64,000 nucleotides of DNA from an uncultured Chloroflexia bacterium (GTDB lineage: Bacteria; Chloroflexota; Dormibacteria; CF-121): NCBI GenBank assembly GCA_963795805.1, contig CAWCIV010000001.1:581859-645858 (forward strand). Direction: 5' to 3'. The number at the start of each line of letters is the position of its first letter. Position 1 is the first letter of the stretch. A program made the position numbers and the translations under genes. A model generated the notes under the pieces. That model was given only the letters and a program-made list of their open reading frames with translations, was not told the DNA's origin and ran no database searches. Shown piece after piece: positions 7,376 through 64,000 of this stretch.

Positions 7376-7651
7376 ATGGCCGTCAAGATCCGGGTCCCGG
7401 GTGCGCTCCGCCAGTTGACGCGTGGCGCTGCGATCGTCGAGGTCAGCGCACAGGACGTCGGCCAGGCGCTCGATGCGCTGAACGAGCAGTTCCCGGGATT
7501 CCGCGAGCGCCTTTATGACGATAAGGGACAGCTGCGGCAGTTCATCAACATCTATCGCAACGACGAGGACATCCGCTTCGGATCGGGACTCAAGACGCCA
7601 CTGAGCGAGACTGACGATCTTTCGATTGTTCCGGCCGTCGCCGGCGGCTGA
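7376..7651 (+). CDS. CysO/MoaD-type ubiquitin-like sulfur-carrier protein (ThiS/MoaD family, C-terminal AVAGG)
   Basis: 91 aa ending ...DDLSIVPAVAGG; FINIYRNDEDIRF core closely resembles the mycobacterial CysO sequence FVNIYVNDEDVRF...ILPAVAGG. Confidence 0.8.
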   Translation: MAVKIRVPGALRQLTRGAAIVEVSAQDVGQALDALNEQFPGFRERLYDDKGQLRQFINIYRNDEDIRFGSGLKTPLSETDDLSIVPAVAGG

Positions 7652-41834: not shown

Positions 41835-41981
41835 TCGAACGCCTGTTCGTTTAGGCGGTCCCGAGAGGAAAGCTGGACGGCGGCGTTATACGGCTGGCAT
41901 TATTTGATTGGGACGGGTCGATTGACGACAGCGCAGCTCCGGGGAGCGCGCCCATCCACCCCAAAGGGAAGTTGATCACGT

Positions 41982-56562: not shown

Positions 56563-57048
56563 TCAGTACTCCGCCCGCATCGATGATCCAGCGGTCATCA
56601 CGAAGGATGTGCCCACGAGGTTGGAAATCATTCCGGTCATGGGCGCGTAGAGAAAGCTGATGCGGACGGTGACCTGATGGTTGCCGGTGGGCCGGGTGGG
56701 TGAGATCCAGATGTACCCGGTATTCGGCGTGCTTGGTGTTGACGGTGTCGTGCACGGGGTTGGATTCGAAAGGCAGGGGTCTTCGGTCAGGACCATGCCG
56801 CCGCCACCGATCTTCGCGAGCGTGGCATTGATGATGATCGTATCGGGAGGAGTGCTGTTTCGATTGCTTCGGAGGACCAGCTGGCGTGCGCCTTCGTGGG
56901 CGGCCTCGGCGATGTTGATATAGATTGCAATCGCTCGGCCGAAGTCGAAGATGCCCATCACGAGGAGGAACAGCAAGGCCGACAACAGTGCGAACTCCAC
57001 CATTGCCTGACCGCGCGACTTCCGACGTGGCATCGCCTGGCGCATCAT
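56563..57048 (-). CDS. TadE-like pseudopilin-like protein
   Basis: RGQAMVEFALLSALLFLLVMGIFDFGRAIA; ATG at 57046-57048 overlaps stop of upstream TadE (ATGA); longer ORF to 57216 is probably not translated. Confidence 0.6.
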   Translation of the reverse strand: MMRQAMPRRKSRGQAMVEFALLSALLFLLVMGIFDFGRAIAIYINIAEAAHEGARQLVLRSNRNSTPPDTIIINATLAKIGGGGMVLTEDPCLSNPTPCTTPSTPSTPNTGYIWISPTRPTGNHQVTVRISFLYAPMTGMISNLVGTSFVMTAGSSMRAEY

Positions 57049-57566
57049 CAGTAGTTCGTCCTCATCTGGACCGACACGCTCATGTGCACCGGGTTGCCGA
57101 CAAGCTGCTGCATCAGCGGCGTGTACAGCTGGAAGTCGTACTTGACGTTGACCGTGACGTAATAGTTCGTCGTTCCGCTGACCCATTTGTCGACGCGGTT
57201 GCTGCTGTCGGGGCATCCCGTCGTACTGCCCGTTGAGTCATGGGGCGGGCAGATCTTGATAGACGACGGCGTGATGTTGCTGTAGAGGAGTTCGCTGTCC
57301 ACGGCATTGACGATCGCCTCGTCGGTCTCGACCGGACACGTCGCATAGCCGTTGCCACTCGAGCATGCGGGGTCCGCCGGGCCCGTGTAGATGTTGAGGA
57401 TTGCGACCCGAGCGCCCTCGCGCGCGGAGTTGGTCACCGACACCTGGTAGAAGTAGGCCCGGCCGAAATCGACCAGCCCGAAGGTCAGGAAGGTAAGCAG
57501 GGGCAACACCATCGCCATCTCGACAAGGGACTGGCCTAGGCGCCGCTGCAAGGAGTGGGGTTTCAT
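57048..57566 (-). CDS. TadE-like pseudopilin-like protein
   Basis: LGQSLVEMAMVLPLLTFLTFGLVDFGRAYF TadE N-terminal signature; 172 aa. Confidence 0.65.
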   Translation of the reverse strand: MKPHSLQRRLGQSLVEMAMVLPLLTFLTFGLVDFGRAYFYQVSVTNSAREGARVAILNIYTGPADPACSSGNGYATCPVETDEAIVNAVDSELLYSNITPSSIKICPPHDSTGSTTGCPDSSNRVDKWVSGTTNYYVTVNVKYDFQLYTPLMQQLVGNPVHMSVSVQMRTNY

Positions 57567-57754
57567 GGATTCGTTACCTGGTCTTATGGCCCGTCGCCCT
57601 ACTGCAGATAACGCAAACGGTAATGGTCCGCATCGGGGATACCGATCACGGCTTGTTACAGGTTCCGTTACGACTTGTGCCCCAAAAGTCGCGCCCGGAT
57701 GAATACTCCCGGGAAAGTGACAACGAGCGTGCGTTCCGGCACAAATGTTCCGTG

Positions 57755-57783
57755 TTGCGGCTTGATGGGGGTGTGACTACAGT
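57755..57783 (+). promoter_or_regulatory. candidate sigma-A-type promoter TTGCGG-17 nt-TACAGT, placing transcription start at about 57790-57791 (first base of element E1)
   Basis: TTGnnn/TAnnnT hexamers with 17-nt spacer; same geometry upstream of E2. Confidence 0.35.
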
Positions 57784-57790
57784 TACCCCT

Positions 57791-58037
57791 GCGACCTGTC
57801 AGAAAGCCAGTTAGAGAAGGAAACGACTCTAGTGGGTCGCCGGCGAGGGATTCGCAAGGATCCCACTCTCGGACCGCAAGGTTCGGGGGCCTGGCCCGCA
57901 AGGGCTGGGGAATCGGATGTCGCAAGACGACCGGTTCTGCCGGTGACGAAGGTCTGGCCCGCAAGGGTTAGGCTGGGCGGCGGGATGAAGGCTTGCTGGA
58001 TAACACTGGCGAGTTGTAAACCGTAACGACGGGTCGC
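57791..58037 (+). ncRNA. candidate structured small RNA, copy E1 (about 247 nt), unknown family
   Basis: 5' GCGACCUGUC pairs with 3' GACGGGUCGC (10 bp); conserved AGAAAGCCAG; GAAA-capped hairpin UAGAG-AAGGAAACGA-CUCUA; several CCCGCAAGGG-type GNRA hairpins; conserved 3' GGCGAG..GUAAACCGUAAC; followed by U-rich AUUCUUAUUUAUCU; paralogue E2 at 61907. Confidence 0.5.
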
Positions 58038-58045
58038 ATTCTTAT

Positions 58046-58537
58046 TTATCTGGCGGTTCGGGCCACCTCCGGAACGAGGGGCTCCACGGCGCTGTCGCTG
58101 ATGGTGGTCTGGCGTGGCAGCCGGGTCTTGGTGTCGAAGCGGTAGAGCGCATCCGGCAGGCGTAGCGCGCGGCCCAGTGCCTGCTCGCCCTCGACGCCGG
58201 AGCCCGCCGCGTGGAAGATCCGGCCGAAGAGGAAGTAGAGGGCAAAGCTTTCGGTCGGCGCGACCAGCTCGAGCATGCCGGAGGAGCGATAGTCAGCCAG
58301 CGCTCGCATCAGGTCGGGCAGCGGCGAAGCGGCCAGGGTCCCACGAGAGACGTTGATCCGGCTCTCTTCCCGGCGCCGTTGCAGCCGGGCGAACTGGCGG
58401 CGGCGGGCCGCTCCCCGGGCCACCAGCAGGGCCAGGCACAGGAACACGATGCCTCCGGCAATCGGAATCGCGGGGCTGACTCGAGGATCAAGCGCTGTCA
58501 GGGCCGGGCCGATTTGCCGAGTGAGTTCGTCAAGCAT
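58046..58537 (-). CDS. DUF4388-domain protein with N-terminal TM segment
   Basis: LPDLMRALADYRSSGMLELVAPTESFALYFLFGRIFHAAGSGVEGEQALGRAL matches DUF4388 pattern; N-terminal AIPIAGGIVFLCLALLVARG TM. Confidence 0.55.
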   Translation of the reverse strand: MLDELTRQIGPALTALDPRVSPAIPIAGGIVFLCLALLVARGAARRRQFARLQRRREESRINVSRGTLAASPLPDLMRALADYRSSGMLELVAPTESFALYFLFGRIFHAAGSGVEGEQALGRALRLPDALYRFDTKTRLPRQTTISDSAVEPLVPEVARTAR

Positions 58538-58635
58538 CCGGCCATCCTATGCACGCGCCCGCTCGGTTTCCATCAAATCGACTGTCCGGTTTCCTGATCT
58601 CGGGGCTTGCCTGCCAGCGATAGAATCAAGCTCGA

Positions 58636-59561
58636 TGGAGGCGGCAGCCAGCGCCAGGTTCGACTCCCTGCTCAAGCGGGGCGAACTGATCGAATCGGTC
58701 TCCGAGATGACGCCGGATTACCTGCGCGAGCTGAAGCACACCCTGATCGTGTCGGGGGACACGGAGCTGATCTCGGCGCCGGCCTACTACCTGGCGGCCA
58801 AGAAGGCGCCCAGCGTGAACGCCTTTATGACCGGCATCGCCATCATCCAGGACGAGCTGGCCCACGCGCACATCGCCTATCACATTCTCGAGGAGCTGGG
58901 CGAGAGCCAGGAGGCGCTGATCTTCAAGCGGGATCCCAAGGCGTTTCGGTACCCATACGCCTTCGACGTGCCGCTGGAGAGCTGGACGGAGCTCGTCGTC
59001 GCCAATGCGATGTACGACCAGGCGGGCTTTTGCCTCCTCGGGGATATCCACGAACAATGTTCCTACGGGCCCTGGAAGCGGGGGTTGGTTAAAGTCATGG
59101 CCGAGGAGAATTTTCACTTGCGCAATGGGCGCAACTGGTCGAAGCGAATCAGCCAGGCGGGCGGCGCCGCTCGCGAGGAGCTCCAAACCGCCGTCGACTG
59201 GATGTTCCCCTTGACGGTTGAGTGGTTCGGGCTGCCGGACAGCCTGAAGCAGCACAGCGCCCAGCTCGACTATCGATTGAAAGGCCTGACCAACGACCAG
59301 CTCCGCCAGCAATGGTTGTCACTGGTGGTGCCCTTCATGGAGTCGATCGGCGTCAAGGTGCCGGCCCATCTGGACGGCCAGGCTTTCGTGCTCGATTACC
59401 CGTTTCCCTGCACCTTCGATGCCGAAGCGAAGCGATGGGACTTCAACGACCCGTGCAGCTGGGATGCGGTGATGTCTCGCTGGCGCGCCCGTGGCCCACG
59501 CAATACGGAGATGGTCGCGCTCTTCCAGGAGAGCTTCAGCAAATTCCAGGTCCACGCATGA
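58636..59561 (+). CDS. paaA: 1,2-phenylacetyl-CoA epoxidase subunit A-like diiron oxygenase (PaaA-like)
   Basis: SYGPWKRGLVKVMAEENFHLRNG and RLKGLTNDQLRQQWLSLVVPFMESIGVKVP align with E. coli PaaA [23 protein letters not shown] / [30 protein letters not shown]. Confidence 0.8.
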
Positions 59562-59884
59562 CGGCCGCGGCCGGGCCGCTCGAGGCGCGCGTCTGGTCCG
59601 CACTGAGCGAGATCGATGACCCGGAGATGCCGATTAATTTGGTGGACCTCGGCCTCGTCTACGGCATCGAGGTGGGGGAGAGGCGGGTGCGCTTGCGGCT
59701 GACGTTCACCGCGATGGGATGTCCGGCGAGCGACATGATCATGGACGATATTACGGCCCGGCTCCTGCGTGTGCCCGGCATCGACCAGGTGGACATCGAG
59801 ATAGTCTGGGACCCGCCCTGGTCGTCATCCCGGCTGAGTGCCGAGGGCCGCGAGACGCTGCGCGCCTGGGGGCTTGCCGTCTGA
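59558..59884 (+). CDS. DUF59/MIP18-type protein (PaaD N-terminal domain-like, metal-sulfur cluster assembly fold)
   Basis: VWSALSEIDDPEMPINLVDLGLVYGIEV...LTFTAMGCPASDMIMDDI; ATGA overlap with paaA. Confidence 0.65.
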   Translation: MTAAAGPLEARVWSALSEIDDPEMPINLVDLGLVYGIEVGERRVRLRLTFTAMGCPASDMIMDDITARLLRVPGIDQVDIEIVWDPPWSSSRLSAEGRETLRAWGLAV

Positions 59885-60108
59885 TGGAATACACACGGGT
59901 ACATCGCGAGGTGCGCGAGTACGCAGTTTTTGCGCGTAAACTGCGGGTCGAGCCGCTGCGGCAGGTTGGCAGCGTCGTGGCGCCGGACGACGAGCTGGCG
60001 AAAGCCTACGCGCGCGCGACCTATGACGAAGAGCGCTGGGTCGAGATGATGATCGTGCGACGGGACGCGGTCATCAGCCTATGGGCTCCCGGCGAGGACA
60101 CTGACTGA
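59884..60108 (+). CDS. paaB: PaaB-like small subunit of phenylacetyl-CoA epoxidase
   Basis: 74 aa; YAVFARK...PLRQVGSVVAPDDELAKAYARATYDEERWVEMMIV resembles PaaB; ATGA overlap. Confidence 0.6.
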   Translation: MEYTRVHREVREYAVFARKLRVEPLRQVGSVVAPDDELAKAYARATYDEERWVEMMIVRRDAVISLWAPGEDTD

Positions 60109-60806
60109 GTCTTTATTCGCTCGTCAAGAGCCTCGCCGACAACAAGCAGTTGCTCGGAATGCGTTACGCAGAATGGTGCACGGCCGCCCCGAGCCTCGAA
60201 GCCGATATCGCGGCCGCTGCGATGGGCCTGGACGACATCGGCCACAGCCGGGTGCTCTACGGGTCGCTGAAAGAGCTCGGGTCTCCCGAGGCCGGCACTG
60301 ACGATCCGGTCACGTATCACAATGTGCCCTATCTCGATCGGCCCTGGGAGGAATGGGCGCAATTCGTGGCCGCCAACGCCGTCCTGGACGGCGCCTTCTC
60401 CTTGATGATCGAGGCGCTCGCCGTTGGGCAGGTTGAGGTGTTGCGCAGCCGGCTGAAGAAGATGCTGCAAGAGGAGCAGTACCACTACCTGCACGGACGT
60501 AGCTGGATGCGTGAGACGGATGCCGCCGCGCAGGTGCACCAGGCATGGGCCGAGGCGATCGCCTGGATCGGGCCCGAAGGCGGCGATGTCGACCAGCTAC
60601 AGACAGAGGGCAAGCTCGCGATGGGAGTCAGGGACCTGACCCAACGGCTCGAGGCGCGGCTCGAGGCAAAGGCCCCGCCGGTCTCGGTCGACTGGACGGC
60701 ATGGGACCCGATCCGCCGCCGAACGGTCGGCGGCAGCATCGATCAGCAGACGCTTGACATGCTGCAGGGACTCGCTGAGAAGCGCTATATGCCGGCCAGT
60801 GGCTAG
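60108..60806 (+). CDS. paaC: PaaC-like diiron-fold subunit of phenylacetyl-CoA epoxidase; start codon unresolved
   Basis: ferritin-like helices; conserved N-terminal-type sequence LYSLVKSLADNKQLLGMRYAEW lies before the first canonical start (TTG 60150); in-frame region opens right after paaB stop at 60105. Confidence 0.6.
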   Translation, partial: SLYSLVKSLADNKQLLGMRYAEWCTAAPSLEADIAAAAMGLDDIGHSRVLYGSLKELGSPEAGTDDPVTYHNVPYLDRPWEEWAQFVAANAVLDGAFSLMIEALAVGQVEVLRSRLKKMLQEEQYHYLHGRSWMRETDAAAQVHQAWAEAIAWIGPEGGDVDQLQTEGKLAMGVRDLTQRLEARLEAKAPPVSVDWTAWDPIRRRTVGGSIDQQTLDMLQGLAEKRYMPASG

Positions 60807-60849
60807 AGAGACCCCCCACCCTAAACTCCCAGTAACCGAGGGGAGGGAA

Positions 60850-60993
60850 GACGTCACGACTCCGCCGGAGGTCTCCTGTACTTTCTGTCAATCGACGGAC
60901 ACCGAGGTCATTTCGCTGTTCGGGAGCCAGGTGATGACGATGCAATGCCGGTGTCGCAAGTGTGGCAACTACTTCGAGGCGAGCAAGTACTGA
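60850..60993 (+). CDS. small zinc-ribbon protein equivalent to PaaD C-terminal domain; start uncertain
   Basis: VSCTFCQSTDTEVISLFGSQVMTMQCRCRKCGNYFEASKY matches the PaaD C-terminal CxxC...S.FGS..C...C..C..F pattern; GAGGGGAGGGA RBS at 60838-60848; no canonical start within 30 nt. Confidence 0.4.
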   Translation, partial: DVTTPPEVSCTFCQSTDTEVISLFGSQVMTMQCRCRKCGNYFEASKY

Positions 60994-60995
60994 CC

Positions 60996-61826
60996 ATGGC
61001 TGACGGGCCCATCTACAGCTGCTTCTCGGTTGAAAGTATCGCGGGCGTCTACGAAGACATCTATGTGCCGCGCATCTTCATCCCGTGGGCCGGCCTCCTG
61101 ATCGAGCAGGCCAGTCTGCGCACCGGCGAGTCGGTGCTCGACGTCGCCACTGGGCCCGGGACGGTGGCGCGCCTGGCTGCCGAAGAGGTTGGACCGAAGG
61201 GCCGCGTCGTCGCAACCGACATCAGTCCGGCCATGGTTGACATCGCTCGGCGAAAGCCGCGCGTGGCTGGCGGAGCCGAGATCCACTATGTCGTCTCGCC
61301 CGCCGCCCCGTTGACGGCGCCCGGGGCCGCGTTCGATGTCGTGACCTGTCAACAGGGCCTCCAATTCTTTCCTGATCGTGGTGCGGCCATCCGCGAGATG
61401 TTTCGCGCGCTCCGGCCAGGTGGGCGACTCGTCGCGGCGGTCTGGCGTGAGATCGCGATGCAGCCGATCTTCGACGCGATCAACACTGCCCTGCATGAAT
61501 GCCTGCCTGCCGAGACGGTAGCGCCGTACGCCGCGCCGTTCCGATGGTCAAATGGCCAGGAGCTTGCCAGTGCCCTGCGTGGCCAGGGTTTTAGGGATGT
61601 CAGGGTCGAGGAGCATCGATTGCCGGTTGTCTACGAAGGTGGCGTGCCACAGGCCATGGCCACGCTCGCGGCCTCACCGGTCGCCGCGGCGATTGCGGAC
61701 ATGCGGGAAGAAAACCGCAACCAGTTATGGAACGCCGGCGCGCATCATCTGAAGCCGCATCTCAAGGGTGGCCAGCTTCACGCCGAGATGGTTTCGAATA
61801 TCGCCACCGCCGCCAAGGAACGCTAG
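60996..61826 (+). CDS. class I SAM-dependent methyltransferase
   Basis: VLDVATGPGTVA (motif I), VVATDISPAM, FDVVTCQQGLQFFPD, LRPGGRLV motifs. Confidence 0.8.
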   Translation: MADGPIYSCFSVESIAGVYEDIYVPRIFIPWAGLLIEQASLRTGESVLDVATGPGTVARLAAEEVGPKGRVVATDISPAMVDIARRKPRVAGGAEIHYVVSPAAPLTAPGAAFDVVTCQQGLQFFPDRGAAIREMFRALRPGGRLVAAVWREIAMQPIFDAINTALHECLPAETVAPYAAPFRWSNGQELASALRGQGFRDVRVEEHRLPVVYEGGVPQAMATLAASPVAAAIADMREENRNQLWNAGAHHLKPHLKGGQLHAEMVSNIATAAKER

Positions 61827-61871
61827 CTCTACCCAGGGGTCGAATGCCTGTTTGCGAACCGCAGTTCGGAG

Positions 61872-61900
61872 TTGTGCGAGGAATCGGCGGCACGTACGCT
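61872..61900 (+). promoter_or_regulatory. candidate sigma-A-type promoter TTGTGC-17 nt-TACGCT, placing transcription start at about 61907 (first base of element E2)
   Basis: same hexamer/spacer geometry as the E1 promoter. Confidence 0.35.
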
Positions 61901-61906
61901 ACGCCG

Positions 61907-62082
61907 GCGACCTGTCAGAAAGCCAGCCGGTGACGGAAACGACACCGGTAAGCTCCCGAGGACCGGGGCCGCAAGGTCTCGGCTAGTACGGAGCGAAGGG
62001 TCTCTCGGAAACGGGTGACCTGGGCGGCGGAAACGAGTCGCTGGGTCACACCGGCGAGGAGTAAGCCGTAACGACGGGTCGC
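61907..62082 (+). ncRNA. candidate structured small RNA, copy E2 (about 176 nt), paralogue of E1
   Basis: identical 10-bp terminal helix and AGAAAGCCAG; hairpin CCGGUG-ACGGAAACGA-CACCGG (stem fully compensatory relative to E1, loop conserved); conserved CUGGGCGGCGG and GGCGAG..GUAAGCCGUAAC; followed by UUCAUUUUUCCU. Confidence 0.5.
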
Positions 62083-62225
62083 TTCATTTTTCCTGCAGGT
62101 CTGCTGGCTCCTCCTTCCCGAGCCTGGTGGACCTGCGCGCGTCAGGATCGGGCGTTCCGTGCCCGCTCGTGCCTGTTTGTTAGGAAATATTAGAACTAAC
62201 ATCTTCGCAGATCTTTACAAACTGT

Positions 62226-62254
62226 TGACTGAACGCCTGGAGCGGGTTAGGGTG
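62226..62254 (+). promoter_or_regulatory. candidate promoter TTGACT-17 nt-TAGGGT for the BNR-repeat gene
   Basis: lower-GC stretch 62170-62235 with TTGACT; would give a ~55-nt leader that excludes E2. Confidence 0.3.
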
Positions 62255-62317
62255 GGGGGGCCTTGGTGCGGGAACACCAGGGCCGAACCGGCTAGCAGCT
62301 CACCCTGGGAGGGAAAC

Positions 62318-64000
62318 TTGACTTTGAATTCACCTGGTTTGCGCGTCCGCCTGTTCTCACGTATCGCATCATTGGCCATTGGCGTCGTCGCCATCTTTGC
62401 AGTGGCGGCGACCAGCCAGCCGTTCCCCGCGACGCAGTCCGGGTCTGGCCTAAGCCAGGATCGACTGAACAAGGCCAGGGCGATCCTCAAGGATTCGCCC
62501 TTCAACGCAGCCGAGGAGCAGTACCTGAACCGGGCGCTGCCCAATACGACAATCTCGCTGCAGCAGGCCCAGAAGGCCAACCAGTCGTTCGGTGAGGTCC
62601 AGAACAAAGGGAACGAGCACGGCGATCAGAACGGCAACGGCGGCTGGCAACTGATCGGACCCACGGTGGGGAACGTTCCAGCTCCGGTGACGTACACGGG
62701 GCGGGCGACCACTGACTCCGGTCGCGTGACATCGCTGGCGATCGCCCCAACCTGCGTCCCGGGTAACTGCCGGCTCTATGTCGGCGCCGCCGGCGGCGGC
62801 ATCTGGATCACGGACGATGCCCTCGCCGTGCCCGCGCACTGGCGATCCTCATCGGCCGGCATGCAGTCCAACTCGATCGGGTCAATCACCATCGACCCCA
62901 CCGATCGCAGCGGCCGGACCATCTACGTCGGAACCGGCGAGCCCAACGGCTCGACCGACTCTGAAGCCGGCATCGGCCTTTACAAGTCGACCAACGGGGG
63001 AGCCAGCTGGAAGCTGGTCGAGGGCAGCGTGCCGGTCAGCCGCGACCGCAGCATCGCGGCCGTTTCGGTCGATCCGGCGAATGCCAACCACCTGCTGATT
63101 GGCACCGCCGTCGCCCGGCACGGGCACTCGGCCGTTTATGGCGGACGCCACACGCCGCCCGGAGCGCCCCTGGTCGGCATCTACGAGTCGACCAACGGCG
63201 GCCGGAGCTGGACCGCCGCCCTGATCCTGCCGCAGGACACGACCACCCCGAGCACCAGCGGTGGTGACTACTTCAAGGGCGGGATCTCTGACCTCCAGCT
63301 CAGCCCGCTCGATCCGACCACGGTCTATGCATCGACCTTCGTGTTCGGCGTGTACCGCCGGGCGCCGCACCTCGATGGCGATACGACGTTCCATCAGGTC
63401 CTGTCCGGTAACGATCAGGCCTCGCCATTCGCGTCTCAGGTGGAGCGGGCGCAGATCGCCGTGACCATGAAGAACGGCCACACGCGAGTCTATGCCGGCC
63501 TTGGTAACGGCGCAACGGCCGATTCGAACCTCTGGCGGGCAGATAACGCCGACCAACCGGCCGCGGCTCTATTTGGCTCCAAGGCGAGCGGGACTGGCGC
63601 CGGCGGACTCTGGAAAGATCTGTCCAACCCGACCCCCGGCACGCCGGGTTATGCCTCGTGGAACTGGTGTGGCGGCCAGTGCTCCTATGACATGCCGATC
63701 GCCACGCCGGCGGGACAGCCGGACAACATCTGGATCGGTGCCCAGATGCAGTACGACGACATCGGCCAGGGTGCACCGGGCGCCCCGAGCCCATCGAACG
63801 GCCGCACCATTCAGCGCTCGACAACGGCCGGTGAAAGCTTCACGGACATGACGAACGACGTCCAGTCGCCGCCGCTGGGGATGCACCCCGACCAGCATGC
63901 GATCGTCTTCGCTTCGTCGAACCCGGATATCGCGTTCATCGGTTCTGACGGCGGCGTGGTGCGGACGAACGGCCACTTCACCGATACCTCGTCCCAGTGC
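62318..64000 (+). CDS. large secreted BNR/Asp-box repeat protein (sortilin/GH74-like beta-propeller repeats), 3' end beyond window
   Basis: own translation from TTG 62318 (GGGAGGGA RBS): signal/TM LFSRIASLAIGVVAIFAVAA; repeated BNR motifs YKSTNGGASW, YESTNGGRSW, IGSITIDPTDRSGRTIYVGTGEPNGS, VDPANANHLLIGT; ORF absent from the track because it has no stop in the window. Confidence 0.6.
   Translation, partial: MTLNSPGLRVRLFSRIASLAIGVVAIFAVAATSQPFPATQSGSGLSQDRLNKARAILKDSPFNAAEEQYLNRALPNTTISLQQAQKANQSFGEVQNKGNEHGDQNGNGGWQLIGPTVGNVPAPVTYTGRATTDSGRVTSLAIAPTCVPGNCRLYVGAAGGGIWITDDALAVPAHWRSSSAGMQSNSIGSITIDPTDRSGRTIYVGTGEPNGSTDSEAGIGLYKSTNGGASWKLVEGSVPVSRDRSIAAVSVDPANANHLLIGTAVARHGHSAVYGGRHTPPGAPLVGIYESTNGGRSWTAALILPQDTTTPSTSGGDYFKGGISDLQLSPLDPTTVYASTFVFGVYRRAPHLDGDTTFHQVLSGNDQASPFASQVERAQIAVTMKNGHTRVYAGLGNGATADSNLWRADNADQPAAALFGSKASGTGAGGLWKDLSNPTPGTPGYASWNWCGGQCSYDMPIATPAGQPDNIWIGAQMQYDDIGQGAPGAPSPSNGRTIQRSTTAGESFTDMTNDVQSPPLGMHPDQHAIVFASSNPDIAFIGSDGGVVRTNGHFTDTSSQC

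Follow-up and report, generated by a model that had tools for sequence, protein, structure and literature searches.

The window analysed here, a stretch of 64,000 nt, carries two similar segments, E1 and E2, and the question raised by the second of them is whether it encodes a functional RNA and, if so, whether this RNA is the product of an independent gene or the leader of the BNR-type gene that follows. From the letters, the earlier note had read E2 as a second copy of the same RNA as E1, and probably as a stand-alone sRNA. Our analysis confirmed that a genuine gene is present here: the flagged stretch encodes a tightly folded non-coding RNA of approx. 176 nt and has its own promoter. The features of the E2 region are as follows.

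61855-61868, + strand: operator-like palindrome CGAAC-CGCA-GTTCG, a perfect match adjoining the −35 hexamer
61872-61900, + strand: predicted E2 promoter, with −35 TTGTGC (61872-61877), a 17-nt spacer and −10 TACGCT (61895-61900)
61907-62082, + strand: E2 RNA core, 176 nt (RNAalifold consensus of 32 E2-type sequences, mapped to the window)
61907-61916 with 62073-62082, + strand: helix P1 (RNAalifold consensus)
between P1 and Pa, + strand: joiner AGAAA
61922-61924 (GCC) with 62023-62025 (GGC), + strand: helix Pa (RNAalifold consensus)
61926-61931 with 61944-61949, + strand: helix P2, with the invariant loop A-A/C-G-GAAA-C-G-A
61952-61956 with 61990-61994, + strand: helix P3, with a GAA/AGUA internal loop
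61965-61980, + strand: inner stem of P3, with a GCAA cap
between P3 and P4, + strand: joiner CGAA
61998-62021, + strand: helix P4, with a GAAA cap
62027-62030 (GCGG) with 62066-62069 (CCGU), + strand: helix P5 (RNAalifold consensus)
62038-62044 with 62051-62057, + strand: helix P6, with the loop GUCACA
after P6, + strand: joiner AAC, the last in order
62083-62094, + strand: U-rich tract UUCAUUUUUCCU, directly 3′ of the 3′ strand of P1
62095-62136, + strand: E2 3′ hairpin, 42 nt, with a stem of approx. 16 bp and the loop CUCCUUCCC

The fold consists of two nested multi-helix junctions, in which the junction nucleotides, the P2 loop, Pa and P5 are invariant and the middle domain, P3, is the size-variable part. 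The terminal helix P1 is formed by GCGACCUGUC paired with GACGGGUCGC, in E1 and E2 alike, and the location of the U-rich tract after its 3′ strand implies that both ends of the RNA are sealed in one helix. Single-sequence folding of E2 gave z = −4.3, and the reverse strand folds far worse (−70.8 versus −94.8 kcal/mol, for 176 nt and a plus-strand stretch of 192 nt, respectively). The transcript is probably approx. 190 nt long if it ends at the U-rich tract and approx. 230 nt if the 3′ hairpin is included, the ends being predicted ones.

The predicted start of E2 lies at or adjoins G61907, the position at which GCGACC begins. The hexamers TTGCGG/TTGTSC and TAnnnT are fixed in position in all homologs, while the sequence of the spacer is not conserved; this shows a promoter-like element of the sigma-70 type, which would set the 5′ end at the first base of P1 in each copy. 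A sigma-70 consensus scan called neither the E1 nor the E2 promoter. The latter was missed because fewer than 9 of the 12 consensus positions match, and the promoter call thus rests on phylogenetic conservation.

The corresponding features of E1, the longer paralog, are given below.

57739-57783, + strand: predicted E1 promoter region, with the imperfect box GCAC-AAAT-GTTC (57739-57750)
57755-57760 and 57778-57783, + strand: predicted E1 core promoter, −35 TTGCGG and −10 TACAGT, separated by a 17-nt spacer
57791-58037, + strand: E1 RNA, 247 nt (RNAalifold on 24 E1-type sequences and covariance-model score)

The core of P1, Pa, P2, P4, P5 and P6 is common to both RNAs, and P3 of E1 is enlarged to a junction with four GNRA-capped hairpins. 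E1 gave z = −8.3 in single-sequence folding and is followed by AUUCUUAUUUAU. Within the shared parts, CAGAAAGCCAG occurs without mismatch at 57800 and 61916 only, and GTAARCCGTAACGACGGGTCGC at 58016 and 62061 only, with no match in 100 shuffles. The stem of the first hairpin differs (UUAGAG/CUCUAG in E1 versus CCGGUG/CACCGG in E2), its loop A(A/C)GGAAACGA being kept. The individual readings of the earlier note were all recovered here: the E2 promoter TTGTGC-17-TACGCT with a start at GCGACC, the terminal helix and the internal and 3′ motifs shared by the two copies, the exchanged stem and retained loop of the first hairpin, an E2 interior shorter by approx. 70 nt (71 nt by our count, 176 versus 247 nt), UUCAUUUUUCCU after E2, and a separate TTGACT-17-TAGGGT before the BNR gene.

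The covariance model R1 was built from E2-type homologs of other genomes and E2 itself, with no E1 sequences, and the family was defined by the full-length P1-Pa-P2-P3-P4-P5-P6 core with the AGAAAGCCAG and CCGUAAC joiners. Over model positions 1-176, the R1 score of E2 was 196 bits (E = 8e-57) and that of E1 120 bits (E = 4e-34); the third-best match in the window reached 10 bits, and the window therefore holds two copies only. E1 and E2 are paralogs with the same core and with middle domains built differently, and their likeness is far beyond chance.

In a mixed alignment of E1 and E2 (A5, 43 sequences), the 53 base pairs were paired in 98.0% of cells, as compared with 89.5% in shuffles and 28-43% when the partners were slid. 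Compensatory double changes were present in 23 of these pairs (in 229 cells), which was reached by none of 500 shuffles. RNAalifold on the 24 E1-type sequences gave 93 pairs, 20 of them with double changes. These results show purifying selection on the fold, acting at the level of the RNA. The view that the exchanged stem reflects covariation, which the earlier note had proposed to check on more copies, was thereby upheld, as was the identity of E2 as a second copy of the same functional RNA. No covariation was seen in Pa and P5 and little in P1, so that support for these helices comes from energy and conservation only. The one double change inside P1 (C-G to U-A) was found in two unique E1 sequences, including the copy in locus L056, and was also the sole usable yield of a pseudoknot search (pairwise complementary covariation among 69 E1 and 72 E2 sequences), in which phylogenetic and G-U-tolerant background overwhelmed the relaxed criterion. 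Conserved G-U pairs are frequent (e.g. A5 columns 30-53, 173-197 and 203-247), which identifies the + strand as the RNA strand.

The same data bear on the idea that the segment is not an RNA, and is a repeated DNA element (REP-like or the end of a mobile element), a protein-binding DNA site or a small protein gene. Spurious ORFs do overlap the region in this GC-rich DNA, and the element is repeated within the window. However, each genome has just two copies, which occupy syntenic positions; the compensatory changes preserve Watson-Crick and G-U pairs on one strand only; the length differences between variants (71, 130 and 38 nt) are not multiples of three; and no transposase or integrase was found among the neighbours checked. 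This idea is, in our judgement, scarcely credible.

Pattern scans of public genomes and metagenomes yielded at least approx. 190 further copies, and those listed are all located on Dormibacterota-type soil contigs and belong to the same two size classes. On Dormibacterota-type MAG contigs, the genome scan identified 59 complete copies (57 unique); in approx. 20 other pattern matches, from other phyla, the rest of the RNA was absent. Applied to the genome loci, R1 produced 69 matches, and none in the approx. 20 chance-pattern loci of other phyla. At least 120 contigs with at least 124 complete copies were obtained from the metagenome scan, the sole exception to the two size classes among the matches listed being one deletion variant of 209 nt. 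A loose 5′ pattern gave 21 matches in viral contigs, all of which lacked the 3′ half and are therefore chance matches. Complete loci usually contain one E1 and one E2, 2.7-6.5 kb apart. A covariance-model search of the window and 73 loci revealed only E1- and E2-type copies and no third copy or type, the “extra” matches in the loci being copies truncated by the locus ends. E1 and E2 thus constitute an undescribed RNA family restricted to Candidatus Dormiibacterota, a phylum of soil bacteria.

Comparison with Rfam 15 gave no match in the window at the gathering threshold, nothing overlapping E1 or E2 at E <= 10, and no match at E <= 1 in six further loci with 12 copies (14 copies in all). A match to ilvB-OMG (12 bits, E = 3.9) at 57608-57719 lies outside both RNAs and was taken as noise. 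ARAGORN made no tRNA-like call. The pair might still be a divergent form of a known class (6S RNA, Y RNA/YrlA, RNase P, SRP RNA, tmRNA or a known riboswitch) overlooked by Rfam, given that paralog pairs of unequal length with ends sealed in a terminal helix are known (6S-1/6S-2, YrlA/YrlB) and that models often fail to detect 6S RNA in poorly sampled phyla. Besides the negative Rfam and ARAGORN searches, the fold itself speaks against this: it is multi-branched, with four to eight separate hairpins on two nested junctions, in contrast to 6S, which is a rod with a central bubble, and a tRNA-like arm is absent. No Rfam match to 6S or to a YrlA-like bacterial Y RNA was found, and the neighbours checked are pilus, oxygenase, methyltransferase and BNR genes, with no Ro/TROVE gene among them. 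Membership in a known class is consequently very improbable.

A sponge of the CsrB/RsmZ type was rejected as well, the only conserved exposed GGA being that of the P2 loop AAGGAAAC; the other AAGG strings consist of the GCAA tetraloop and paired G residues. The K-turn and CsrA-sponge readings of GAUGAAGG and the AAGG strings were discarded on inspection, because the partner strand has no G-A dinucleotide and the GG residues are paired.

Looser parallels exist. 6S-1/6S-2, GlmY/GlmZ and YrlA/YrlB also comprise two homologs of unequal length per genome, with paired termini and presumably common control. E1 and E2 resemble neither the rod and bubble of 6S nor the three simple hairpins of GlmY/GlmZ, lack the tRNA-like module of YrlA and, unlike most such pairs, lie 2.7-6.5 kb apart in one conserved locus. 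With orphan ncRNA motifs (e.g. raiA, and Chloroflexi-1 and Acido-1 of the Weinberg/Breaker surveys) they share an intergenic location, a length of 150-250 nt, multiple helices supported by covariation, highly conserved junctions, restriction to one lineage and a gene context that offers no functional clue. They differ in having no sequence or structure match to any of these motifs (Rfam 15 negative), and in forming a fixed paralog pair with unlike middle domains and a common operator-like promoter palindrome.

This palindrome, the GAAC-N4-GTTC core of which lies approx. −52 to −41 from the E2 RNA 5′ end, is kept in the upstream sequences (66 unique ones of E1, 74 of E2) and has an additional GTTYG half-site in front of it. 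Across 402 kb of related loci, GAAC-N4-GTTY is almost confined to E1/E2 promoters, where it always starts 51-53 nt upstream of the RNA 5′ end. The E1 family consensus (66 unique sequences) reads AAACGAGCG..GTTyGnGAACnAAtGTTCCGTATTGCGG-N17-TAnnGT. GAAC-N4-GTTC is the LexA-box consensus of Firmicutes and Actinobacteria (PMC4951493). It is matched at the E1/E2 promoters, perfectly so at E2 of the window (CGAAC-N4-GTTCG), but unlike LexA (SOS) boxes the palindrome is located upstream of the −35 hexamer and not over the core promoter, and this consensus may not be that of Dormibacterota. Repressor sites are seldom found at such a position, which would suit an activator just as well. Similar dyads are also used by other regulator families (ArsR/SmtB-type). 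Among six-frame translations of 1.3 Mb of DNA, those of Dormibacterota loci contained no signature motifs of RecA, UvrA, UvrB, LexA, DinB or RuvB. The window has one other perfect box, situated ahead of a HAD phosphatase/adenosine deaminase operon and not of an SOS gene.

The neighbouring genes address the question of whether E2 is a gene or a leader. The gene 3′ of E1 belongs to at least 12 families and is convergent in 10 of 26 loci, and E1 itself is inverted in loci L056 and L091; in the window, a DUF4388 gene on the opposite strand ends 9 nt past E1. The gene 3′ of E2 is convergent in four of 31 loci (L027, L041, L060 and L023), E2 being intact in each. Downstream genes are preceded by −10-like elements of their own or by a conserved promoter-like block, CTTGTTTTCCGAAaCTTAATcgGCTAtGGT, which in homologous loci lies between E2 and the gene; in the window, TTGACT-17-TAGGGT occupies 62225-62253, ahead of the BNR-type ORF starting at 62318. 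The sampled genomes are fairly closely related and have synteny in common, so that these observations on context stand for few independent events. Other neighbours include tad pilus genes, PaaA/PaaC-like oxygenase subunits, a methyltransferase or aminotransferase, secreted BNR-like proteins, an HtrA-like protease and an HD-GYP protein; the neighbours checked indicate no partner protein or ligand.

The varied and convergent neighbours of E1, its inversion and the separate promoter-like elements of the downstream genes argue for stand-alone RNA genes and not leaders. E2 could alternatively be a cis-regulatory leader (riboswitch or attenuator) of the downstream gene for a BNR-like secreted protein: in 23 of the 31 loci it is co-directional with a BNR-like gene (clusters c1/c20), 80-260 nt upstream, which leaves room for a cis effect by read-through, and the GCCUUCCC loop of its 3′ hairpin is complementary to a GGGAGGG-type ribosome-binding site (e.g. 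at 62306-62312). This is nevertheless quite unlikely, in view of (i) the four loci with a convergent next gene, in the first three of which the hairpin is present too, (ii) the promoter-like block between E2 and the gene, (iii) the paralog E1, which has the same core and no constant downstream gene, and (iv) the U-rich tract after P1. The marks of a cis leader, namely location in a 5′ UTR, co-transcription and a constant downstream family, are not displayed by E1/E2. On this point too the earlier note, which had preferred a stand-alone sRNA to a BNR leader, agrees with the comparative evidence, including the conserved promoter and U-rich tract. The note did not mention the palindrome next to the −35 hexamer, the 42-nt hairpin that accompanies E2 beyond the U-rich tract, or the restriction of the family to one phylum.

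The 3′ flank of E2 deserves separate consideration. The consensus of the U-rich tract is TTCAaTTTtc in 43 unique E2 flanks and ATTnTTTTt in 69 unique E1 flanks, with a mean of 6.2 and 7.1 T residues, respectively, in the first 12 nt. The tract may be either a terminator tail or a single-stranded linker. P1 is a 10-bp GC-rich stem followed by a U-rich tract, but it encloses 156-227 nt and not a small loop, which is why the terminator scan misses this combination. The hairpin beyond the tract has no U-tail. Its family consensus loop is UUUGCCUUCCCGAG, in which the anti-Shine-Dalgarno-like GCCUUCCC is invariant; the GCCUUCCC loop is unchanged in 27 of 30 aligned unique flanks, and the CCUUCCC core is present in all 30. 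The alignment of these 30 flanks (A4) shows that the stem is kept, mostly through wobble and one-sided changes, with double changes in two of 10 pairs. A subclade (L023, L038 and L083) has other elements in place of the hairpin. E1 has no comparable 3′ hairpin and retains the whole core.

Such a loop would fit a classical base-pairing sRNA, the body of which would be a scaffold and the seed either the GCCUUCCC loop or the single-stranded AGAAA/GGAAAC. C-rich loops targeting Shine-Dalgarno sequences are a known design of Gram-positive sRNAs (RsaE/RoxS), a U-rich single strand beside a hairpin is a typical sRNA 3′ module, and the constancy of the loop fits this picture. A core of 176-247 nt with two nested junctions and approx. 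50-90 conserved pairs, however, exceeds the needs of a scaffold; E1 keeps all of it without the hairpin, and conservation peaks in the junctions and helices and not in one accessible seed. We therefore consider this explanation improbable.

Another tentative explanation makes the hairpin conditional. The E2 core would be a ligand-sensing aptamer and P1 with the U-rich tract a conditional terminator: when P1 is stabilised, transcription would stop and give a short RNA, and when it is not, read-on would add the anti-Shine-Dalgarno-like hairpin, which would act on mRNAs or a protein in trans, E1 being a second sensor with no output arm. The aptamer-like conservation (invariant junctions and a variable periphery), the position of the U-rich tract and the retention of the hairpin with E2 whatever the next gene are in keeping with this. 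ACAGGU and GACCUGU occur in the hairpin arms; the former is complementary to ACCUGU in the 5′ strand of P1 and the latter includes a copy of it, so that alternative pairings with P1 are possible on paper, and in one subclade the module of P1 3′ strand and U-rich tract is duplicated downstream. On the other hand, the gene context suggests no ligand, the MFE fold of E2 plus hairpin leaves both structures intact with no competition predicted, the 5′ strand of P1 is invariant and offers no covariation by which to judge alternative pairing, the shared 6-7-mers could be due to chance, and E1 has no comparable output element. This mechanism appears unlikely to us. Its logic is that of EutX/Rli55 of Enterococcus and Listeria, where a recognisable cobalamin riboswitch forms the 5′ domain and the ANTAR protein EutV is the target of the output hairpins. 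That system would resemble E2 in its aptamer-like 5′ domain, terminator-like element, conserved hairpin and stand-alone gene; E2 differs in that no known class of riboswitch matches its core, nothing points to a ligand, and its output loop is anti-Shine-Dalgarno-like.

The reading that we prefer, at a probability of roughly 0.55, is that E2 is an independent gene encoding a stable sRNA with a high degree of structure, and that E1 and E2 form a co-regulated pair acting in trans via their fold. The two genes would be switched together by one DNA-binding regulator, for which LexA is the best sequence match. The RNAs would act in trans through the folded core, by binding a protein or a small ligand, because conservation is distributed as in an aptamer or RNP core and not as in an antisense seed, and the C-rich GCCUUCCC hairpin loop of E2 could pair with G-rich ribosome-binding sites. 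A bolder version, which we regard as a long shot, is that the two RNAs form a pair of sensors switched by stress, possibly under SOS/LexA control, in which the core binds a metabolite or protein and P1 of E2 gates an anti-Shine-Dalgarno hairpin that represses mRNAs in trans.

Candidatus Dormiibacterota is an abundant soil phylum from which no cultured strain is known, and there is almost no knowledge of its RNA biology; a literature search found no paper linking Dormibacter* with structured RNA. The RNA family formed by E1 and E2 is new, although RNAs of this general kind are familiar. Phylum-wide covarying RNAs with an invariant junction core are often riboswitches, ribozymes or the RNA half of an RNP. 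The pair constitutes a new Rfam-type family with a seed alignment in hand and can be used as a marker of Dormibacterota contigs in metagenomes. It also provides a defined promoter and operator architecture for a phylum without genetics, and the natural variants (E1, E2 and the rare deletion forms) already map the dispensable parts of the fold. If the palindrome is a LexA site, this would be, as far as is known, an uncommon instance of an SOS regulon that includes large structured RNAs; and if the two RNAs do act as a pair of sensors, they would represent a new riboswitch-like aptamer class and a stand-alone, damage-inducible riboregulator in an uncultured phylum.

The architecture that the earlier note had proposed for E2, a structured RNA, and its paralog E1 was borne out by reading of the window. 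The E2 promoter consists of TTGTGC (61872-61877), a 17-nt spacer and TACGCT (61895-61900), with GCGACC following from 61907. The terminal helix (GCGACCUGUC...GACGGGUCGC) and the motifs AGAAAGCCAG and GGCGAG..GUAARCCGUAACGACGGGUCGC are present, and both long motifs are confined to E1 and E2 within the window, with 0 occurrences in shuffles. The first-hairpin stem is exchanged (CCGGUG/CACCGG in E2 versus UUAGAG/CUCUAG in E1) and the loop A(A/C)GGAAACGA is kept, while pairwise alignment located the shortening of the E2 interior in a 71-nt difference in middle length between two conserved flanks. Also found were UUCAUUUUUCCU (62083-62094), 3' of E2, and TTGACT-17-TAGGGT (62225-62253), 5' of the BNR-type ORF (start 62318). 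Against dinucleotide shuffles, the fold z-scores are -4.3 (E2) and -8.3 (E1), and folding is much poorer for the strand opposite E2. E1 is flanked by a divergent TadE gene (57048-57566, minus strand) and a convergent DUF4388 gene (58046-58537, minus strand), which ends 9 nt past it.

Elements of the two RNA loci in the window
57739-57750: imperfect palindrome GCACAAATGTTC of E1
57755-57783, plus strand: E1 promoter
57791-58037, plus strand: E1 RNA, 247-nt paralog with the same core; its P3 consists of four GNRA-capped hairpins
61855-61868: perfect palindrome CGAACCGCAGTTCG of E2
61907-62082, plus strand: E2 RNA, 176 nt
62095-62136, plus strand: E2 3' hairpin, 42 nt with a 16-bp stem, after the U-tract

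Species-representative genomes were scanned with the pattern CAGAAAGCCAGN{6,10}GGAAACGA, which yielded 73 loci. Approximately 20 of these were chance matches in unrelated phyla, in which R1, a covariance model built from 32 E2-type sequences, scored nothing. The remaining loci are Candidatus Dormiibacterota MAG contigs, among them "Chloroflexi bacterium CF_xx" soil MAGs and a small number of bins under the names Eisenbacteria, Binatus or Limnocylindria with identical synteny; every one carries the whole RNA. The genome copies form two size classes, 247-248 nt (E1-type) and 175-180 nt (E2-type), and loci long enough for both contain one of each, 2.7-6.5 kb apart. A metagenome scan revealed at least 120 soil contigs with at least 124 complete copies, which, among the matches listed, belong to the same two classes except for a single 209-nt deletion variant. 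In the window R1 detected exactly two copies (196 bits for E2, 120 bits for E1; next match 10 bits). Both are nearly identical to their counterparts in JALYYC010000001.1, from a Dormiibacterota MAG, which places the window in this phylum. Its search of the loci gave no third RNA type, the few short extra matches being copies truncated by locus ends. In viral contigs, a loose 5' pattern produced chance matches only. As far as sampled, the family is confined to Dormibacterota.

RNAalifold identified 49 pairs in the E2-type set (12 doubly changed), 93 in the E1-type set (20) and 54 in A5, a mixed alignment of 43 E1 and E2 sequences (23). For a controlled count, one isolated pair was left out of A5; the other 53 were standard in 98.0% of cells versus 89.5 ± 0.4% in shuffled alignments (reached in 0 of 500 shuffles), and both-side changes occupied 229 cells versus 84 in shuffles. 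Sliding the 3' partners by 1-3 columns left only 28-43% of cells paired and at most 19 doubly changed. The earlier note had named an alignment of more copies as the test of its covariation claim; such an alignment shows covariation, which favours a functional RNA. Its strand is the plus strand, because numerous conserved G-U pairs would become A-C mismatches on the other. E1 and E2 are almost certainly real structured RNA genes, and a non-RNA element is, in the face of this covariation, barely credible.

Parts of the E2 fold, 5' to 3'
61907-61916 / 62073-62082, plus strand: P1, seals both ends
AGAAA: joiner after the P1 5' strand
GCC / GGC: Pa, invariant
61926-61931 / 61944-61949: P2, every pair covaries
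61952-61994: P3, one GCAA-capped hairpin in E2, a junction with four GNRA-capped hairpins in E1
CGAA: joiner between P3 and P4
61998-62021: P4, GNRA-capped
GCGG / CCGU: P5, invariant
62038-62057: P6, loop RUMACA
AAC: joiner after P6

P1 is nearly invariant, its 3' strand drifting through G-U/A-U and G-C/G-U alternatives; a full exchange of C-G for U-A (C10-G in L056) occurs in two unique E1 sequences, the L056 copy among them, and is the only complete compensation observed in P1. The P2 loop holds an invariant G-GAAA-C mini-stem with A-A/G-A on its flanks. In the P3 internal loop of E2, an invariant CGAA faces AGUAC, which we take to be the sequence signature of a putative bulged-G (sarcin-ricin / loop-E-like) module.

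Two E1 copies with intact promoters carry rare internal deletions: the 117-nt copy (L035:3272-3388, minus strand) is missing P3 and most of P4, and in the 209-nt copy (L203, from near 7384, plus strand) the fourth hairpin of P3 is gone along with the 3' strand at the base of P3. Assembly errors or gene decay could explain both copies, as could a natural minimal form of E1.

Every copy is equipped with a conserved promoter-like element and a U-tract of its own. Alignment of upstream flanks (66 unique E1, 74 unique E2) by distance to the RNA 5' end revealed a conserved -35 element (TTGCGG, or TTGTGC/TTGTCC), a 17-nt spacer that is not conserved and a -10 element TAnnnT, then a gap of 6-7 nt before P1 begins; in both types a U-rich tract lies directly 3' of P1. 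A generic consensus scan called neither feature, so these assignments rest on positional conservation.

Upstream of both promoters, at about -52 to -41 and 4 nt 5' of the -35 element, we found the palindrome GAAC-N4-GTTC, preceded by a further GTTYG half-site. Across the family loci (402 kb), GAAC-N4-GTTY is almost confined to E1/E2 promoters and always starts 51-53 nt from the RNA start; through this regular spacing two diverged E1 copies, missed by the pattern, were found. Since this cis-element is common to both, E1 and E2 are probably co-regulated. The LexA box known from Firmicutes and Actinobacteria is this same dyad, GAAC-N4-GTTC, with variants reported in Chloroflexi and Cyanobacteria (PMC4951493). 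This resemblance makes LexA a candidate regulator of E1 and E2; no lexA, recA or uvr genes were present in 1.3 Mb of fetched DNA. Besides that of E2, the only perfect CGAAC-N4-GTTCG in the window (41837-41848, plus strand) lies 5' of a HAD phosphatase-adenosine deaminase operon, in the intergenic stretch that separates the operon from a GH39 glycosidase gene; this palindrome may serve the same regulator or be due to chance (about 0.06 expected by our own rough estimate).

ORFs were called in all loci and clustered, and the clusters were named via Pfam. The syntenic locus begins with tad pilus genes (TadE/TadG-like) divergent from E1, continues with E1, a variable gene, PaaA/PaaC-like oxygenase subunits, a DUF59-type protein and a methyltransferase or aminotransferase, and ends with E2 and, usually, a secreted BNR-like protein. 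In the window, E1 and E2 bracket in direct orientation an operon (58353-61826, plus strand) for PaaA/PaaC-like di-iron oxygenase subunits, a DUF59/FeS-assembly-type protein and a SAM methyltransferase, the slot of which holds an aminotransferase in other genomes. This bracketing is kept across the family; no functional link is evident.

The usual position of the BNR-like gene would fit E2 as its cis-acting leader. At least 12 gene families are represented right 3' of E1, with a convergent orientation in 10 of 26 loci, and a convergent gene follows E2 in 4 of 31. E1 is inverted relative to E2 and all neighbours at L056:6560-6806 (plus strand) and L091:1697-1943 (minus strand), where it points to the tad pilus genes. 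Co-directional downstream genes come with -10-like elements of their own, positioned so as to leave very short leaders or none, and the BNR-like gene has a conserved promoter-like block of its own. This variety, convergence, inversion and separate promoter equipment support the stand-alone sRNA that the earlier note had thought probable, and make a leader unlikely.

In seven loci, the AT-rich promoter-like block CTTGTTTTCCGAAaCTTAATcgGCTAtGGT lies approximately 60-110 nt 3' of E2, strongly conserved and directly 5' of the secreted BNR-like gene (cluster c1); its spacer is conserved too, which suggests a candidate regulator site. The window equivalent is the AT-rich stretch 62175-62225. In seven loci (five of them at E1 plus 35-55 nt), co-directional genes start 6-8 nt past TAGnnT, as in TAGTCT-CGCGGG-ATG and TAGAAT-CAATCCGG-ATG 3' of E1, a spacing that suggests leaderless mRNAs with putative promoters of their own in Dormibacterota.

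The hairpin 3' of the U-tract is common to 30 unique E2 flanks. It is kept with E2 in three loci in which the next gene is convergent (L027, L041, L060), so it is part of the E2 unit rather than of the BNR gene. Its stem changes are mostly wobble and one-sided (double change at 2 of 10 pairs), and its arms contain GACCUGU, which repeats a portion of the P1 5' strand, and ACAGGU, which is complementary to that strand. In a subclade of five loci (L023, L038, L083, L101, L118) the usual hairpin is absent and a C-rich/G-rich one, CCCUCCCC...GGGGGGAGG, lies 20-110 nt 3' of E2; all of these except L038 have a duplicated module of P1 3' strand and U-tract, GGGAC(U/C)GGGU(C/G)GCUUCA(A/G)UUUUCC. The usual hairpin is possibly an additional terminator that lacks a U-tail or a structure protecting the 3' end, or possibly an output arm added only on failed termination at P1 and the U-tract. 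E1 and E2 may resemble riboswitch-controlled sRNAs, and a riboswitch-gated sRNA of the EutX/Rli55 type is a rather doubtful alternative. The hairpin loop, UUUGCCUUCCCGAG, is almost invariant and anti-Shine-Dalgarno-like (GCCUUCCC in the family, CUCCUUCCC in the window), as might be expected of a plain base-pairing sRNA acting through a C-rich loop. In these RNAs it is the junctions, the P2 loop and the sequence-invariant helices that are most conserved, with P3 free to change in size; aptamers, ribozymes and RNP cores typically show this pattern and antisense regulators do not, which argues for trans action through the fold and leaves plain base pairing improbable.

Rfam 15 gave 0 matches at E1/E2 in the window, at the gathering threshold or E <= 10, and none of its families matched any of 14 tested copies; ARAGORN called no tRNA- or tmRNA-like gene. 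The fold is unlike that of 6S RNA, Y RNA or a CsrB-type sponge, and it is very unlikely that E1 and E2 are diverged forms of either of the first two or of another known class. A literature search found nothing on structured RNAs in Dormibacter*. E1 and E2 belong to no named family and constitute a new one, covariation-supported and strand-specific, with two paralogs per genome; in general kind they work like the orphan structured ncRNAs known from comparative genomics. With a probability of roughly 0.55, we read them as a new structured RNA family with its own promoter-like elements, co-regulated and acting in trans through the fold: the two RNAs would be switched together and would bind a protein or a ligand. 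New structured RNA motifs turn up regularly, which tempers the significance of the discovery, and the function is a predicted one; E1 and E2 themselves are well founded, occur across the phylum and could go straight to Rfam and to experiments.
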